Sequence record: SRR20825006_339
Length of the DNA: 21,808 nucleotides
Strand: one strand, 5' to 3'
Shown: positions 5,006-21,808 of the stretch, one piece after another
How positions within the stretch are numbered: the first letter of the stretch is position 1
How the letters are laid out: every line of letters begins with the position of its first letter
Program-made: the position numbers and the translations under genes
Notes under the pieces: generated by a model
The model's database searches: none
What the model was told of the DNA's origin: nothing
The model's input: only the letters and a program-made list of their open reading frames with translations

Positions 5006-6073
5006 ATGGCTACACAAAAATTCCGAAACGATTTAAATAACAACGATAACGATGATGACTTTGATTTAGATGCATATATCGAAGAACAAGCACAATCAGC
5101 AGCTGAATCCCCCACCTCAGAGTACTATCACCCATTACCCCCAAAAACATCTACCAAACGAAATTTAATTGCTATACTGCTCTTTATAGTTTTGCCTTCT
5201 TTTTGGTTTATAAAAAGTGACCCTCTTTCAATGTTTAGCTCAAATGATCAAATCACTAATGCTGAAGCAAGTTTTGAAGAACCATTTGAAAGTAGGTTTC
5301 CAGCTCCGCCTCTACCGCCCGTTGTAAATGAGCCTAGACTTACTGGTGATTACGTAGACTACTTAGCTCAAGCTACAGAATTAGGATTTACTGAAAGCTT
5401 CTCTAATAATGGAATTCAAGCCATGTATTCTGGTGGCGTTCCTCTTTCCTATCTTACGGGTTTAGAGAATGCTGACTTCCTAGATGAACTTTCCTACTCT
5501 GCCGTTATCGGTTTATATAACGGTGGTGTTCCCGTTGAATATATTCAGCAACTGGAAGATGCCGACTTTTATGATGACTTATCATACTCTGCTGTCATTG
5601 GATTATATAATGGTGGCGTTCCTAGTACTTATCTTACAAGCTTAGACGAAGCTGGTTATTTGGATGAATTGTCTTATTCCGCGGTTATTGGATTATACAA
5701 TGGTGGTGTATCTATCAACTATCTTAACCAACTTAATGAAATTGGGTATTTAGATGAGCTTTCTTACTCAGCCATTATTGGTTTGTATAACGGTGGCGTA
5801 ACCATTAATTATCTTCGAGGCTTAGATGAGGCTGGATATCTAGACGACCTTTCTTACTCAGCAGTTATTGGATTGTACAATGGTAATGTTCCCATTACTT
5901 ATCTTTCTAATTTAAATGAAGCTGGCTTTCTAGATGATCTATCTTACTCCGCAATCATTGGTTTGTACAACGCCGATGTTCCTGTTGAGTTTTTAACCAT
6001 ATTAGATAATCGCGATTTATACGACGATATGAGTTACTCTGAAATTATACAAGCTTACTTAGCCGACAACTGA
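5006..6073 (+). CDS. Single-pass membrane protein with eight tandem 30-aa repeats, function unknown
   Basis: Acidic N-terminus, then KTSTKR followed by a TM helix (NLIAILLFIVLPSFWFI), a Pro-rich linker (FPAPPLPPVV), and repeats of consensus GGVPxxYLxxLxEAGYLDELSYSAVIGLYN. Confidence 0.9.
   Translation: MATQKFRNDLNNNDNDDDFDLDAYIEEQAQSAAESPTSEYYHPLPPKTSTKRNLIAILLFIVLPSFWFIKSDPLSMFSSNDQITNAEASFEEPFESRFPAPPLPPVVNEPRLTGDYVDYLAQATELGFTESFSNNGIQAMYSGGVPLSYLTGLENADFLDELSYSAVIGLYNGGVPVEYIQQLEDADFYDDLSYSAVIGLYNGGVPSTYLTSLDEAGYLDELSYSAVIGLYNGGVSINYLNQLNEIGYLDELSYSAIIGLYNGGVTINYLRGLDEAGYLDDLSYSAVIGLYNGNVPITYLSNLNEAGFLDDLSYSAIIGLYNADVPVEFLTILDNRDLYDDMSYSEIIQAYLADN
5342..6061 (+). repeat. Intragenic tandem repeat, 8 x 90 bp (first and last units degenerate)
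   Basis: The g(t/a)tt(a/g)ta(t/c)aa motif recurs at 5511, 5601, 5691, 5781, 5871 and 5961, an exact 90-nt period with no indels. In the conserved part, differences are mostly at synonymous positions. Confidence 0.95.
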
Positions 6074-8930: not shown

Positions 8931-9419
8931 ATGGACAGCGAATTATTAACTTGGATTTTTCTGATTGGTGGCATCGTTCTGATGATACTTGAAACTGTAA
9001 TTCCAAGCGGAACTGCGTTTGTTTTGGGGTTTAGTGGAGTAATGGTTGGGCTTCTAAGATTTCTGGGAATTCTTGAAAACCCAATGACTGCAACTATGGC
9101 ATGGCTTTTTATTTCCGTAGGATTAATCATCATGATTCGCCCACTTATTAAAAAGTACTTCGGTGGAGACACATCCTTTAAATACGCTGATGAAGATTAC
9201 GAAGCCATGGACAAAGTTGTTGATGTGCTTGAACCCATTAACGACGAAGACAACAGCGGGCGTATTCGCTTTCAAGGAATTTCTTGGCAAGCTCGCACTA
9301 TAGACGGAACCGTTCCCGCAGGTACACAAGTTAAAATAAAGTATAGAGATAACACCACTTGGATTGTTGAACCTATTGACATTATTGAGCAACCCATTTC
9401 AAATAAACTTAAAGAATAA
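8931..9419 (+). CDS. Short NfeD-family protein (stomatin operon partner)
   Basis: Three hydrophobic helices (W..IGGIVLMILETVIPSG) followed by an OB-fold-like C-terminus (GRIRFQGISWQART...GTQVKI). Lies immediately upstream of SPFH genes. Confidence 0.9.
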   Translation: MDSELLTWIFLIGGIVLMILETVIPSGTAFVLGFSGVMVGLLRFLGILENPMTATMAWLFISVGLIIMIRPLIKKYFGGDTSFKYADEDYEAMDKVVDVLEPINDEDNSGRIRFQGISWQARTIDGTVPAGTQVKIKYRDNTTWIVEPIDIIEQPISNKLKE

Positions 9420-9431
9420 ACAAGGCTAATT

Positions 9432-10373
9432 ATGATTTGGACCCCCACACTTATTGCACTGATATTCCTCTACTTCCTTATTACACGGTTATTCATCATT
9501 GTTGAGATGCGTGAAGAGGTTATACAAGAGAGACTTGGTAAATTCAAGAAGAATCTTAAACCAGGTTTTCATTTTCTCATTCCTCTTGCAGATCGCCCTG
9601 CGTACCGCAGAGAAATGCGCGAGCAAGTATTAGACGTTCCCAGCCAAACATGTATTACCAAAGACAATATTGAAGTTGCTGTAGATGGTTTGGTATACAT
9701 AAAAGTTATGGATGCATACAAAGCGAGTTATGGAATTGCCAACTACCAAGCCGCATCCGTAAACCTTGCACAGACAACTATGCGTAGCGAAATTGGTAAA
9801 ATTACACTTGATGATACTTTTTCACTACGTGAAAAAATGAACGAGAATATTGTTCGTGAAATTGACAAAGCAGCCGATCCATGGGGAATTAAAGTGCTTC
9901 GATACGAACTTAAAAATATCCGCCCTTCCAACGAAATCATTGATACGATGGAGAAACAGATGGAAGCGGAGCGAGAAAAAAGAGCTGAAATAACACACTC
10001 TGAAGGTTTTAGACAATCCAGAATTAACGAGTCTGAAGGGGAACAACAAAGCCAAGTGTTACTCTCTGAAGGTGCACGTCAGCGTCGTATTAACGAAGCT
10101 GTTGGTAAAGCTAAAGAAATTGAGTTGGTTGCTACCGCAACTGCAAAAGGACTTCAACGAATTGCTGAAGCCATGCAAAAACCTGGTGGAGAGTTGGCAG
10201 TTCGAACCAAATTAGTAGAACAGTATATTAACGAGTTTGGCAAAATTGTCAAGAACTCGAATATCTCTGTTCTCCCTACAGAAACGGCTAATCTAAAAAC
10301 ATTTTTTGAAGGAGTTAAAACAGTCAGTAGTCACACTGAAAGTGCTTCTTCAACCAAAATTGGAGGAAAATAA
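9432..10373 (+). CDS. SPFH/band-7 stomatin-like (paraslipin-type) protein 1
   Basis: N-terminal TM, ERLGKF..L.PGFHFLIP, ITKDNIEVAVDG, LAQTTMRSEIGK, WGIKVLRYELKNI and a coiled coil starting MEKQMEAEREKRA. Confidence 0.95.
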   Translation: MIWTPTLIALIFLYFLITRLFIIVEMREEVIQERLGKFKKNLKPGFHFLIPLADRPAYRREMREQVLDVPSQTCITKDNIEVAVDGLVYIKVMDAYKASYGIANYQAASVNLAQTTMRSEIGKITLDDTFSLREKMNENIVREIDKAADPWGIKVLRYELKNIRPSNEIIDTMEKQMEAEREKRAEITHSEGFRQSRINESEGEQQSQVLLSEGARQRRINEAVGKAKEIELVATATAKGLQRIAEAMQKPGGELAVRTKLVEQYINEFGKIVKNSNISVLPTETANLKTFFEGVKTVSSHTESASSTKIGGK

Positions 10374-10375
10374 CG

Positions 10376-11323
10376 ATGGAAATTGTAGAATTAGTCAGCA
10401 AAGTTTTAGTTGGTCTTTTTGGCGTATTTTTAGTGTTCAAAATCATCCAGTCGTTACGTATGGTACCCAACCAATTCGCTTTTATTGTAGAGCGTTTAGG
10501 CAACTATCAGAAAACCTTGGGGCCTGGCTTTCATGCGCTTATCCCCTTTCTGGACAAGGTAGTTTATAAGCAAGATTTACGGGAAGAAACCATTGAAGTA
10601 GAACCCCAAGAGTGCTTCACCAAAGATAACGTAAAAGTTGAAGTTGATGGTGTCATATATCTAAGTGTGATGGATCCTGTAAACGCGAGCTATGGCGTTA
10701 CCAATTATCGCTACGCTGCTATTCAGCTAGCGCAAACAACTACTCGTTCTGTAATCGGTCTCATGGACTTAGATGAAACTTTTGAAGAACGTGCTAAAAT
10801 GAGCAAGAAGGTTGTTGAAGTGCTAAGTGAGATGGAAATACCTTGGGGAATCAAAGTTCATCGTTACGAAATAAAGAACATTGTAACTCCACGTACGGTA
10901 CAAAATGCTATGGAACGACAAATGACCGCAGAACGTGATCGCCGTGCCGTAATTGCGAAGTCTGAAGGGTTTAAAGGTGCCAAAGTAAACGATGCTGAAG
11001 GTTTAAAAACAGAGATGATTAACATTTCTGAAGCCGAGATGCAGCGCCAAATTAACGAAGCTGAAGGTTTAGCTAACGAAATTGAAGCACTTGCCGAAGC
11101 AACAGCGGTATCCATCGAGAAAATTGCTGAAGCTCTTTCTCAACCTATGGGAACTCAAGCCATGCAATTGCGCCTAGCTGAAAAATACCTTGGTACGCTA
11201 TCTGGTCTTGGACGTGAGGAAAACAACATCATCCTCCCTAAAGACATTTCAAACTATGATGCGGTAATGTCTGGCCTTTCATTAGAGGATATCATCATCG
11301 ATTCAAAAAAGGTAAAAAGCTGA
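10376..11323 (+). CDS. SPFH/band-7 stomatin-like (paraslipin-type) protein 2
   Basis: N-terminal TM, VERLGNY..LGPGFHALIPFLDKV, TKDNVKVEVDG, LAQTTTRS, WGIKVHRYEIKNI and MERQMTAERDRRA. GGAGG at 10362-10366 precedes the ATG. Confidence 0.95.
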   Translation: MEIVELVSKVLVGLFGVFLVFKIIQSLRMVPNQFAFIVERLGNYQKTLGPGFHALIPFLDKVVYKQDLREETIEVEPQECFTKDNVKVEVDGVIYLSVMDPVNASYGVTNYRYAAIQLAQTTTRSVIGLMDLDETFEERAKMSKKVVEVLSEMEIPWGIKVHRYEIKNIVTPRTVQNAMERQMTAERDRRAVIAKSEGFKGAKVNDAEGLKTEMINISEAEMQRQINEAEGLANEIEALAEATAVSIEKIAEALSQPMGTQAMQLRLAEKYLGTLSGLGREENNIILPKDISNYDAVMSGLSLEDIIIDSKKVKS

Positions 11324-11487: not shown

Positions 11488-11532
11488 TGTCTGAACCATG
11501 ATTAATTAATGATTAATTGATATGCTATGATA
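11488..11532 (+). repeat. Left arm of the inverted repeat flanking the GxxExxY gene
   Basis: tgtctgaaccatGATTaattaatGATTaattGATAtgctatGATA. The first 16 nt match the reverse complement of 11947-11962 at 14/16, and the outer 9 nt match perfectly. Confidence 0.8.
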
Positions 11533-12009
11533 AATGAAAATTACAAATACAGTGATTTGACTTCAAAAATTATTGGATTTAGTATGACTGTTCATAATTC
11601 ATTGGGGTGTGGTTTTCAGGAAGTAATTTATCAGCGTGCACTAGAGATAGAAATGGCAGAAGGTGATTTAAATTTTAGTAGAGAGTTTGAAATGCCTGTT
11701 TATTACAAGAACCAACAAATAGGAACCCGTAGAGTTGATTTTTTGGTTGAAGGAAAAATTTCTGTAGAATTAAAAGCCTTAACGAAATTAGAAGATGTCC
11801 ATCTTGCACAAGCAATCAACTATTTAGAGGCATACGATTTGGAAGTTGGTTTACTTGTAAATTTTGGTTCAAAGAGTTTAGAGTTTAAACGCTTATCCAA
11901 TAAAAAGTTTAACCAAAAGAATCAAGGCAATCCTAAAATCAAGTGGAATCAAAGTTCAGACAATAGAGACCCAATACTACTCTTAATCACCCTTCTCATT
12001 CCCCAATGA
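11527..12009 (+). CDS. GxxExxY protein (PD-(D/E)xK nuclease fold)
   Basis: VHNSLGCGFQEVIYQRAL contains the GxxExxY signature. RVDFLVEGKISVELKA is the D...ExK catalytic motif, followed by HLAQAINYL and GLLVNFG. The C-terminal ~30 aa come from read-through of the right repeat arm and beyond. ATGA overlap with the next gene. Confidence 0.95.
   Translation: MINENYKYSDLTSKIIGFSMTVHNSLGCGFQEVIYQRALEIEMAEGDLNFSREFEMPVYYKNQQIGTRRVDFLVEGKISVELKALTKLEDVHLAQAINYLEAYDLEVGLLVNFGSKSLEFKRLSNKKFNQKNQGNPKIKWNQSSDNRDPILLLITLLIPQ
11920..11962 (+). repeat. Right arm of the inverted repeat flanking the GxxExxY gene
   Basis: AATCaaggcAATCctaaAATCaagtggAATCaaagttcagaca, with AATC at 11920, 11929, 11937 and 11947 and terminal gttcagaca at 11954-11962. 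Confidence 0.8.
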
Positions 12010-19411: not shown

Positions 19412-21631
19412 ATGTTTCTTTCCCATACTAAGAATAAAGCTTTTGTTTTAACCCTTTGCGTGCTACTGTGTTCTCCTTATCTGCTTTCTCAGCCGATTGA
19501 AGAACAGAAGCAGCCTGTTACCATTGGTATTGCTCTTAGTGGAGGTGGTGCAAAAGGTTTTGCTCATATTGGTGTATTAAAGGTTTTAGAAGAAGAAGGC
19601 ATTCCGATTCAAGTGGTAACGGGTACAAGCATGGGAAGTATCGTGGGTGCACTCTATGCTATTGGATACAGCCCTGCAATGTTAGAAGAAATTGCTTTAC
19701 GTGATAACTGGATTGATTTTTTTAATGAGAACCCAACTCGAGAAGCTAAATCAGTTTTCCAGCGAACTTTAGAAGACAAGCATATTGTCTCAGTACCCTT
19801 AAACGATGGTAAATTTTCGTTACCTCGAGGATTTCTGGAAGGTCAAAAATTCTCTTTGATGCTTAGTAAGCTCACTCTTCCTTATCATAATGTTGACGAT
19901 TTCACCACCTTTCCAATTCCTTTTGCTTGTGTAGCTACTAACCTGCGAAATGGTGAGGGAAAACGTTTTGTTAATGGCGATCTCGCACAAGCAATCAGGG
20001 CAAGTATTTCATTTCCTAGTGCATTCAAGCCTGTGAAAATAGGTGATGAAACTTACATCGATGGCGGTTTAGTCCGAAACCTTCCCGTTTCAGATGCCCG
20101 AGATTTAGGCGCTACTTTTGTTATCGCTTCAGATGTAGCCAGCGACCTTAAATCGGCAGATAGCTTATCCTCCTTCTTTGACGTAATGAACCAAGCGATG
20201 GGTTTTGCAATGAAGAAATCGGATCTCGAGCAAATTGCCCTTTCAGATTTTTATATTCGGCCACCTGTTGATGACTATACCATTTACGATGTCGGAAAAG
20301 TTCAAGAATTAATAAATGCTGGCGAAGAAGCAACCAGAAAGCAAATTCCAGAGCTAAAAAAACTACTCGAAAAATATTCCTATAGCGCCGACCAATCACG
20401 CTTCAAGGAAATCGAATTAAAAGACATTATCACTTTTGATGAAATTCTTATTGAAGGTATTTCTGGCGATGATAAAATGATTGCTGAGCAGATACTCAAT
20501 TTCAAGTCTAGCTACCAAGTAAGTATTCGTGATTTAGACAAAGCTATAGATAAACTTTACGGTACAGGGCTTTTTAACATGATTACTTACCGCCTTCAGA
20601 ATAAACCCAATAATGAAGGCCAAGAACTTGTATTTATGATTACCAGCTATGACAAGGAGCAATTTGCCTTTGGTGCACGATACGATAGCTTCTACAAAGC
20701 TTCTTTGCTCTTCAGTTTAGATCTGAGTTCGGTATTCTACGAAAATGACCTCCTATTTAGCAACCTTAGAGTAGGCGACCAATTTCAGCTGAAAGTGAAT
20801 TACTTTAAACCGTTCACCTTTTATAGAACGTCTGGTTTAAACTTAATTACGCAGGTGCAGCGCAGCCCATTTAATATCTACACCAATCAGAATTTAAGCT
20901 CCTCGGTAAATGTGGAAGTTCTCTCCCTAGATGTACTTACAGGACTTCAATTTATGAAGAATTTTTCGGTTTCTGCCGGAACTCACTTTGAGGCCTATAA
21001 TATCAACAAAAAAGTGGGCGAAACGCTTCTCTTTGAAGAGATTAACAGTAATGCATCCGCCCAAGTTCTTATTAATGGCGACACATTTGACAGAAGTGTG
21101 TATCCAACCAAAGGCTATAAGTTATTACTTAAAGGCGAGGCTTCACAAAAAGGCTGGGATACAAGCAAACACTTAGGTCAGCTTTCTTTTCTTTGGGATC
21201 AATACGTTCCCTTATCTCCAACATTTTCTATGTTTTCGAAAATTGTTTTGGGTAGAACCGTCCGCAATAACTACAACATACCATTGCATTATTATTATTT
21301 TGCTGGTGGAACTTTGCCCTCCACGCTATTCGAAGAACATCAATTCACTTTTTATGGGCAGAATGTTCAAGAACTTCGGGGACCAAATATCCAGTATCTA
21401 CAATTGGGAGGTCAACTCAACATTGCCAAAGATTTTTATTTACGAGGATTGTTTAACATCGCAAACTTAAGCAATACTTGGGATTGGGATGCGAACTACA
21501 AAAACTTAGAAGACGGTTTCGGTTTTTCTTTTGGTACACCAACCGTTATTGGACCTGTAGAATTGATACTTGATGGCGACGACATAAACGGCCCATTCTC
21601 CCTCCGCATCAATGTAGGCTACACGTTTTAG
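19412..21631 (+). CDS. Patatin-like phospholipase with POTRA and C-terminal beta-barrel (PlpD/type Vd-like)
   Basis: Signal peptide, LSGGGAKGFAHIGVL, GTSMG (catalytic Ser), IDGG (catalytic Asp), POTRA-like DLDKAIDKLYGTGLFNMITY, and a barrel ending PTVIGPVEL...INVGYTF. Confidence 0.93.
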   Translation: MFLSHTKNKAFVLTLCVLLCSPYLLSQPIEEQKQPVTIGIALSGGGAKGFAHIGVLKVLEEEGIPIQVVTGTSMGSIVGALYAIGYSPAMLEEIALRDNWIDFFNENPTREAKSVFQRTLEDKHIVSVPLNDGKFSLPRGFLEGQKFSLMLSKLTLPYHNVDDFTTFPIPFACVATNLRNGEGKRFVNGDLAQAIRASISFPSAFKPVKIGDETYIDGGLVRNLPVSDARDLGATFVIASDVASDLKSADSLSSFFDVMNQAMGFAMKKSDLEQIALSDFYIRPPVDDYTIYDVGKVQELINAGEEATRKQIPELKKLLEKYSYSADQSRFKEIELKDIITFDEILIEGISGDDKMIAEQILNFKSSYQVSIRDLDKAIDKLYGTGLFNMITYRLQNKPNNEGQELVFMITSYDKEQFAFGARYDSFYKASLLFSLDLSSVFYENDLLFSNLRVGDQFQLKVNYFKPFTFYRTSGLNLITQVQRSPFNIYTNQNLSSSVNVEVLSLDVLTGLQFMKNFSVSAGTHFEAYNINKKVGETLLFEEINSNASAQVLINGDTFDRSVYPTKGYKLLLKGEASQKGWDTSKHLGQLSFLWDQYVPLSPTFSMFSKIVLGRTVRNNYNIPLHYYYFAGGTLPSTLFEEHQFTFYGQNVQELRGPNIQYLQLGGQLNIAKDFYLRGLFNIANLSNTWDWDANYKNLEDGFGFSFGTPTVIGPVELILDGDDINGPFSLRINVGYTF

Positions 21632-21691
21632 TTTAGCAGTTAGGATTCTGAGATAGATTTAAGGAAAGCAGTCGTCTTACGTCTTACACCT

Positions 21692-21725
21692 AATCCTGTA
21701 AATCCAATAAATCATAGTTCAGAGA
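21692..21725 (+). repeat. Gene-less copy of the GxxExxY right-arm repeat
   Basis: AATCctgtaAATCcaataAATCatagttcagaga. Positions 21710-21725 match 11947-11962 (aatcaaagttcagaca) at 14/16, with a 9-nt AATC period. Confidence 0.75.
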
Positions 21726-21772
21726 TTAAGTTATTGAGAGATTATGTGTAGGCGTTGATTTTAGCTCTGCCT

Positions 21773-21807
21773 CATTCATAATTTTGAATTATTAATTCTC
21801 AATTCCC
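21773..21807. repeat. Heptamer tandem repeat (AATTnnn x5)
   Basis: cattcat-aattttg-aattatt-aattctc-aattccc, running to the window edge. Confidence 0.6.
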
Positions 21808-21808
21808 C

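Follow-up and report, generated by a model that had tools for sequence, protein, structure and literature searches.

The DNA analyzed here, referred to as the window, is a stretch of 21,808 nucleotides (nt) from sequence record SRR20825006_339. Near its right end, at 21692–21725 on the plus strand, is a 34-nt sequence (AATCctgtaAATCcaataAATCataGTTCAGAGA) resembling the arms that bracket a small nuclease gene of the GxxExxY family 9.8 kb away. This solo arm contains three AATC words spaced 9 nt apart, starting at 21692, 21701, and 21710, followed by GTTCAGAGA (annotated as ATAGTTCAGAGA). Its outer end is AATCATAGTTCAGA, which fits the motif AATCA(T/C)(A/G)GTTCA(G/A)A of the repeat family described below.

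The solo arm lies downstream of a gene for a patatin-like phospholipase fused to an Omp85-type barrel (19412–21631, plus strand; Pfam PF01734, E = 2.9e-37; PF19143, E = 1e-13). The stop codon of this gene is at 21631, and the gene-less module containing the arm begins 14 nt downstream, at about 21645. The inner part of the module (21645–21691, plus strand) is common to the gene-less copies of three related genomes, G001, G009, and G033, and contains GTCTTAC twice at 21674–21687. The next mosaic module (21720–21772, plus strand) is made of GAGATT and TGAG words; similar stretches are found on contig 27 of G001 and also dispersed in that genome. The window then ends inside a high-copy dispersed repeat (21773–21808, plus strand) with the core TTGAATTATTAATTCTCAATTC, present in at least 15 places in G001 at 89–97% identity. 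In contigs of metagenome runs the summed depth of this repeat was 10–25 times that of the patatin gene, and its high copy number is probably the reason that the sequence stops there. No part of the window matched Rfam at the gathering score.

The GxxExxY gene (11527–12009, plus strand) belongs to the PDDEXK_3 family by its matches to PF13366 (E = 1.1e-37; 129.4 bits against a cut-off of 22) and TIGR04256 (E = 2.2e-39; 134.4 bits against a cut-off of 35). It is bracketed by a left arm on the minus strand (11488–11521; TGTCTGAACCATGATT, then GATT words) and a right arm on the plus strand (11920–11962; four AATC words starting at 11920, 11929, 11937, and 11947, then AAAGTTCAGACA), both recognized by the 16-mer match and the profile described below. 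The solo arm has the same orientation as the right arm. At 11907–12009 the GxxExxY reading frame extends across the right arm as far as the beginning of the following gene, with which it overlaps (ATGA, 12006–12009); the arm itself is 44 nt upstream of that gene. Because the right arm of G001 has one additional 10-nt word, which shifts the tail of the frame and gives a protein of 151 amino acids (aa) rather than the 160 aa of the window, conservation of this tail as part of the protein is improbable.

Likeness of the solo arm to the cassette arms

The terminal 16-mer of the solo arm (AATCATAGTTCAGAGA, 21710–21725) matched the end of the cassette right arm (AATCAAAGTTCAGACA, 11947–11962, plus strand) at 14 of 16 positions, and matched the reverse complement of the left arm (AATCATGGTTCAGACA, 11488–11503, minus strand) equally well. 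The AATC period of approximately 9 nt and the 14/16 match had been noted in a preliminary description of this DNA; both were confirmed, and its coordinates and wording were correct. A search with the pattern AATCNNNGTTCAGASA, allowing up to one mismatch, gave three matches in the window, whereas 0.06 were expected and none of 100 shuffled sequences reached three. A profile, R1, was then made from sequence alone by aligning six gene-less copies (one from the window, three from G001, and one each from G009 and G033), with the cassette arms excluded. When both strands of the 21.8 kb were searched, R1 ranked the solo copy first (49.2 bits, this copy being one of the six in R1), the cassette left arm second (11490–11533, minus strand, 15.3 bits, E = 4.3e-4), and the right arm third (11930–11960, 7.8 bits, E = 0.094); the fourth-ranked match had E = 0.66. 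Of 31 related genomes, three contained the exact 14-mer AATCATRGTTCAGA, with six occurrences in all; the control, a reversed pattern, gave no match in any of the 31. Three of the six matches were in the left arms of orthologous cassettes (G001, G002, and G009), and three were in gene-less modules (contigs 2 and 23 of G001 and contig 2 of G009).

Looser patterns gave results that could be taken to mean that the likeness is a coincidence of AT-rich, low-complexity intergenic DNA. The search motif proposed in the preliminary description, with two mismatches allowed, was found 178 times in G001 compared with 132 times for the control, which is near background, and a strict array, AAATC-N3-5-AAATC-N3-5-AAATC, was at control level in four genomes of the clade (matches/control: G001, 4/2; G002, 2/1; G009, 0/2; G033, 3/2), being enriched only in G008 (11 versus 0). 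Against this stand the three window matches where 0.06 were expected, the six 14-mer matches against none in the control, all in the two expected contexts, and the ranking by R1 of both cassette arms directly after the solo copy. Because of these three results chance and base composition are excluded as explanations; the coincidence is very improbable and effectively refuted. In its exact form the proposed search motif was found in G001 only at the two cassette arms; the near-background count indicates that the family is small in the lineage of the window. These sequence comparisons establish homology between the solo copy and the arms of the GxxExxY cassette in the same window.

The arm family and its gene clade

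Within the genus R1 gave 95 matches at E ≤ 0.1, distributed over 18 of 23 genomes: 38 in G019, 11 in G033, 8 each in G001 and G009, 5 in G035, 4 in G002, 2 in G018, and low numbers in the others. At least eight of the matches lay within 250 nt of a listed PF13366 match (contigs 22 and 31 of G019, and G016, G018, G035, and G001), the rough chance estimate being about 0.07; G001 has a single PF13366 gene. On contigs 22 and 31 of G019, two GxxExxY genes are found among seven paired gene-less hairpin elements of 86–121 nt, with the form TTTGAACTRTGATT...AATCAYAGTTCAAA; elsewhere in that genome approximately 20 one-armed copies lie in repeat-rich, gene-poor stretches. The proposal that the arm belongs to a dispersed repeat family linked to GxxExxY was thus borne out, since R1 found both the cassette arms and the flanks of PF13366 genes in congeners.

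Twenty gene-less arms of G019 had a mean pairwise identity of 0.70 over the 45-nt arm, and of 0.27 and 0.29 in the two flanks, which demonstrates that the repeated unit is the arm itself, with a sharp end at GTTCAAA. In 51 copies, 90 of 157 spacings between ATC words were exactly 9 nt; past the end motif the same measure was flat. The arm consists of ATC-containing words set at intervals of 9 nt, and A(T/C)AGTTCA(G/A)A forms its sharp outer limit. Copies differ from each other by whole words of 9–10 nt, the gene-less copy of G033 being one word longer than that of G009. Most copies (26/29) lay outside open reading frames (ORFs) of at least 80 aa; their orientation relative to neighboring ORFs was inconsistent. 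The gene-less copies have in common about 30 nt of additional sequence with GTCTTAC words (at C2, C23, and C9 of G001, C2 of G009, and C11 and C9 of G033) that is absent from cassette arms. Because this additional stretch is found at several loci, we conclude that the gene-less copies gave rise to one another and did not arise separately as scars.

PF13366 genes were present in 79 of 121 genomes sampled from the order, with 1–9 matches each. Most of the GxxExxY copies that were fetched are bracketed by inverted arrays of short words ending AACC.../...GGTT, as seen when the flanks were read by eye, and the words vary by locus (CACAGAG, CGCAGAG, GGATGGG, CGCAAAG, GATT, and others). These word types were named from direct reading of the flanks; automatic word detection around the cassettes was noisy. 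An exact inverted repeat of at least 9 nt surrounded 26 of 28 copies, a raw count made without a shuffle control. A maximum-likelihood tree was made from 33 GxxExxY domains after exact duplicates were removed; 10 of 41 sources gave no row because the motif filter failed or there was a stop within the 118-codon window. The window protein belongs to a five-member clade (support 97/93), together with those of G001, G018 contig 16, and G019 contigs 22 and 31; AATC words and the GTTCA(G/A)A end are found in the flanks of these genes. Other words of GATT/AATC type, such as the GATCRCT ends in G008, characterize the next larger clade, of 10 rows (99/98); the other 20 rows have none of these and carry different words, such as CACAGAG or CGCAGAG. 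A crude "AATC-rich" label required four changes on the tree, a number equaled in 4 of 500 shuffles. Because relatives share labels, this test demonstrates co-inheritance, not recognition.

With the same search, R1 gave 19 matches over all four GxxExxY loci of the clade and, at E ≤ 1, none in any of six loci with Y1_Tnp (PF01797) genes. The arm type goes with a single GxxExxY clade, whereas Y1 transposases show no such association. These counts bear on the possibility that the arms are repetitive extragenic palindromic (REP) sequences served by Y1 (IS200/IS605-like) transposases of the kind called REP-associated tyrosine transposases (RAYTs), the GxxExxY genes merely landing among them. Such an arrangement would suit the 3–6 PF01797 matches per genome and the intergenic, often single, occurrence reported for REPs. 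It is nevertheless very improbable, given the distribution of R1 matches between the two kinds of loci and the lack of a palindrome in the solo arm.

Other gene and repeat families were seen in these genomes. Small Y1 transposase genes of 134–196 aa, maybe RAYT-like, are present on contigs 13 and 8 of G001 and contigs 64, 10, and 15 of G019, without AATC arms, and another repeat family forms the hairpin ggaagctcctgcttcc. On contig 2 of G019 (120520–121543) there are two tandem GxxExxY genes, each boxed by CGCAAAG/CTTTGCG arrays; that genome thus holds at least two gene-and-word families.

The GxxExxY protein itself has the residues G29, E32, Y35, D71, E81, and K83, corresponding to G-x-x-E-x-x-Y and D...E-x-K, which were invariant in 29 aligned sequences including that of the window. 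A structure model made from this alignment had a mean predicted local distance difference test (pLDDT) score of 91 and a predicted template-modeling (pTM) score of 0.84. Its top match among solved structures was the Cas4 protein SSO0001 (4ic1; Foldseek E = 2.6e-4; template-modeling score of 0.59 normalized to the query); the further matches included a second Cas4, lambda exonuclease, and the Hjc resolvase. When the PDB was searched by sequence with the protein, no matches were obtained. At the level of the predicted model, a Cas4-like fold is confirmed.

The orthologous cassettes showed that the GxxExxY gene is decaying in part of the clade. In G002 (contig 7) the gene is frameshifted by a 1-nt deletion, and in G009 (contig 4) all but about 30 nt of it is gone, with both arms intact. 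At the corresponding site in G033 (contig 10) there are no arms, and the interval from the Band_7 gene to a 340-aa gene is occupied by a different small ORF (about 140 aa). We considered G033 as a clean empty site for the cassette and rejected it, because it carries another small gene and the replaced block is larger than the arms.

The one-armed state and turnover at the patatin site

The best inverted partner of the solo arm was TCTGAGATA-GATTTA at 21647–21661, with a score of 15. Scores at least this high were obtained with 266 of 2000 shuffles and with 153 of 1388 real 60-mers from the window, and the match is not significant. Folding gave the same result: the 91-nt module folded as DNA had z = −1.07, with 28 of 200 shuffles folding at least as well, and the 177-nt tail folded as RNA (z = −0.69) no better than its shuffles. 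By eye, TCTGAGATAGATTTA at 21647–21661 could be a degenerate left arm, placed approximately as left ends are in G019; this candidate was rejected because its score and fold are at the level of shuffles. The preliminary description had seen no left end here, and none was found by these tests. When 50 arm copies of the genus were examined in the same way, 20 had an upstream partner with z > 2, and 15 of those 20 were in the two G019 neighborhoods that hold GxxExxY genes; among gene-less copies of the window's own clade, none of eight had a significant inverted partner.

A GxxExxY cassette has an inverted partner and a gene between the arms. The solo copy has no significant partner and no room for a gene after 21631, and we found neither traces of GxxExxY coding sequence at the site nor, in the relatives compared, a GxxExxY gene downstream of the patatin gene, where the preliminary description had suggested looking for this or other cargo; the next genes are NYN plus OST-HTH in G009 and G002 and a GNAT acetyltransferase in G033. 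Because of the missing partner, the lack of room, and the absence of the gene from this site in relatives, the solo copy is classed as an orphan arm and not as a cassette.

An orphan arm might be what is left in place of a full cassette or paired hairpin that once followed the patatin gene and from which deletion removed the nuclease gene and the left arm, so that it was never dispersed in one-armed form. Cassettes of this clade do decay, as the G002 deletion and the G009 remnant with its arms kept demonstrate; the corresponding patatin site of G009 retains a truncated homologue, which implies that the module is old there; and 21647–21661 offers a weak candidate for the left end. The details of the site do not favor such a relic: there is no coding trace, the module starts 14 nt past the patatin stop codon, no clade gene-less copy of the eight has a significant inverted partner, and the GTCTTAC stretch of about 30 nt, common to the gene-less copies and absent from cassette arms, points to descent of these copies from one another. 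We consider an in-situ relic unlikely.

Comparison of relatives demonstrated that the content of the patatin site differs between close strains. In G001, the nearest relative (61% of sampled 31-mers in common with the window), identity is 100% as far as the patatin stop codon at 21631, beyond which the two are unrelated; the G001 sequence continues with a GGATTAT array, other repeat modules, and then a 200-aa ORF without a Pfam match. Contigs from metagenome runs X1 and X3 contain the patatin gene as far as 21631, from where their letters are those of G001. In G001 and these contigs, where the module is absent, the patatin gene is 95–100% identical. No contig in four metagenome runs covered 21650–21751; in run X4 one contig joins 21632 to 21779, weak evidence since its shorter side is only 29 letters. 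In G009, where the 3' end of the gene is 92% identical, the same site holds a truncated homologue of the module with GTCTT... and AATC words, without the GTTCAGA end and with an extra block of about 110 nt. Because of this homologue, the solo copy is probably an old resident in this lineage. G002 and G033 (80% identical) have only other modules in common at the site, and in G019 (70% identical at the patatin 3' end) several AATC arrays and AATCATAGTTCA motifs lie downstream of the patatin orthologue.

A second locus, upstream of a DEAD-box helicase gene, has the module in G001 and G033 and lacks it in G009, G002, and G019, with unclean boundaries. Clean insertion boundaries of the gene-less module were sought at the patatin and DEAD-box loci and rejected; only differences of mosaic blocks were found. 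Much of this turnover could have its origin in recombination between repeat clusters.

The position of the arm just past a stop codon, the AATC arrays and AATCATAGTTCA motifs that also follow the patatin orthologue in G019, and the placement of arms upstream of genes (25–40 nt before the GxxExxY start codon in G019 and G018, and 44 nt before the next gene for the window's right arm) would be compatible with a host element acting in cis, in which a host factor would act on neighboring genes through the phased ATC array, used either for binding or as an RNA 3'-end element, and the link with GxxExxY would be secondary. Several results count against a role of this kind. No terminator-like site (a G+C-rich stem-loop plus a T run) was found in 21400–21808, the folds as DNA and as RNA are at shuffle level, the orientation relative to neighboring ORFs is inconsistent, and the element is missing from this site in the closest genome and in the X1 and X3 contigs, in which the patatin gene is 95–100% identical. 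A host cis-element is, in our judgment, distinctly improbable.

As separate observations on this region, the GAGATT/TGAG words and AATTCTC heptamers form mosaics with the AATC arm, and contig 27 of G001 (7.8 kb) consists almost entirely of such repeats.

A possible nuclease-repeat partnership

Taken with the likeness of the arms, these results make it reasonably probable that 21692–21725 is a one-armed, gene-less member of the family whose inverted copies bracket the window's GxxExxY gene. Recognition of the arm by a protein would be favored over a base-paired structure, because the words are fixed, the spacers are variable, the words keep a 9-nt phase, and no hairpin is significant. The cognate binder of such an array would probably be the GxxExxY nuclease, and the gene-less arms would be non-autonomous offshoots, spread or reshuffled among repeat clusters like single REPs beside a RAYT gene. 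That the nuclease acts on these arms is put forward tentatively. Equally tentative is a more general proposal, in which GxxExxY mini-nucleases and their word-array arms would form a nuclease-repeat partnership similar to that of RAYTs and REPs and based on a Cas4-like PD-(D/E)XK enzyme; the 9-nt-phased word and the end motif that are read would be specific to each protein clade, and orphan arms would be half-sites copied, cut, or recombined in trans, driving the rapid turnover of intergenic clusters in these genomes.

Several points weigh against a partnership of this kind. We know of no GxxExxY protein for which activity, binding, or movement has been shown. There was no target-site duplication and no clean filled/empty pair at the loci compared, no significant terminal inverted repeats of gene-less copies were found, and the replaced mosaic blocks could arise by recombination among repeat clusters without a dedicated enzyme. 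The genome-wide counts come from relatives of the window's genome, and the strict AAATC array was at control level in four of them, as given above. Copy number is loosely tied to the cognate gene: G033 has no gene of the clade and 11 R1 matches, G009 has a deleted cassette and 8, G018 has one clade gene and 2, and G019 has two genes and 38. The arrangement in G019 and G018 is arm, arm, gene, arm, compared with arm, gene, arm in the window. Finally, the only paper that we found listing the PDDEXK_3 family gives its function as "Unknown" (PMC3424549).

Among known systems, the closest likeness is to REPs, their paired forms (REPINs), and RAYTs. REP sequences are reported to be intergenic and often single (Bertels and Rainey 2011, PMC3116915, and later work). 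The two systems have in common short intergenic repeats occurring singly or as inverted pairs, a small low-copy gene flanked by the repeats, a repeat type that follows the gene lineage, and mostly vertical inheritance within a lineage. The flanked gene here, however, encodes a PD-(D/E)XK mini-nuclease with a Cas4-like modeled fold and not a Y1/HUH transposase, and Y1 loci lack the arms; the repeat is an array of words spaced by 9 nt with a sharp outer end and not a palindrome of 20–40 nt, and the hairpin of the solo arm is not significant. With Y1 genes flanked at none of six loci and no palindrome or hairpin (z = −1.07), the solo arm does not belong to the REP/REPIN-RAYT class.

Bacterial interspersed mosaic elements (BIMEs) of enterobacteria are intergenic mosaics of several short repeat modules whose order and orientation vary and which differ by strain. 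The arm clusters described here are likewise strain-variable mosaics of short modules; their modules, in contrast, are word arrays, one type of which is tied to a nuclease gene family, and they have no sequence relation to BIME modules. Miniature inverted-repeat transposable elements (MITEs) have terminal inverted repeats and a target-site duplication at a clean insertion, and are short gene-less derivatives of gene-bearing relatives. Gene-less short forms also occur here beside gene-bearing ones, among them the paired gene-less elements of 86–121 nt in G019; unlike MITEs, they showed no target-site duplication and no clean boundary at the compared loci, and most gene-less copies are one-armed. 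The solo copy is not a MITE, since its inverted repeats are not significant and the filled/empty comparisons gave replaced blocks without duplicated flanks.

Intervening sequences of 23S rRNA genes, such as that of Coxiella, are reported to have a tiny ORF of unknown role between inverted repeats (PMC4990558). On that description they resemble the cassette as compact inserts with a small ORF boxed by inverted repeats, and differ in that the element here is located between protein-coding genes, its ORF belongs to PF13366, and the solo arm has neither an ORF nor a partner. The gene itself resembles the Cas4/RecB-type PD-(D/E)XK nucleases in its modeled fold and conserved D...E.K triad; compared with Cas4 its protein is shorter (approximately 125 aa, about 60% of the length of Cas4), has no PDB sequence match, and lacks a CRISPR context. 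In the literature, searched at abstract level, we found no description of repeats flanking the GxxExxY gene family.

If gene-less arms are serviced by the nuclease, REP/RAYT would be joined by a second class of gene-plus-intergenic-repeat system that has another enzyme and another repeat design. Some of the mosaic intergenic repeats at which assemblies break and which vary between close strains would then be easier to explain. The locus offers an apparently intact gene, both of its arms, and, 9.8 kb away, an orphan arm that shares their words and end motif.

Two further features of the window were observed. Five tandem copies of a 90-nt unit (61–71% identity) are present at 5391–5979, inside the ORF at 5006–6073, which suggests that its protein is built of 30-residue repeats. 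The consecutive ORFs at 8931–9419, 9432–10373, and 10376–11323, the last of which is the Band_7/SPFH gene, may be tandem paralogues, because they contain short direct repeats approximately 960 nt apart.
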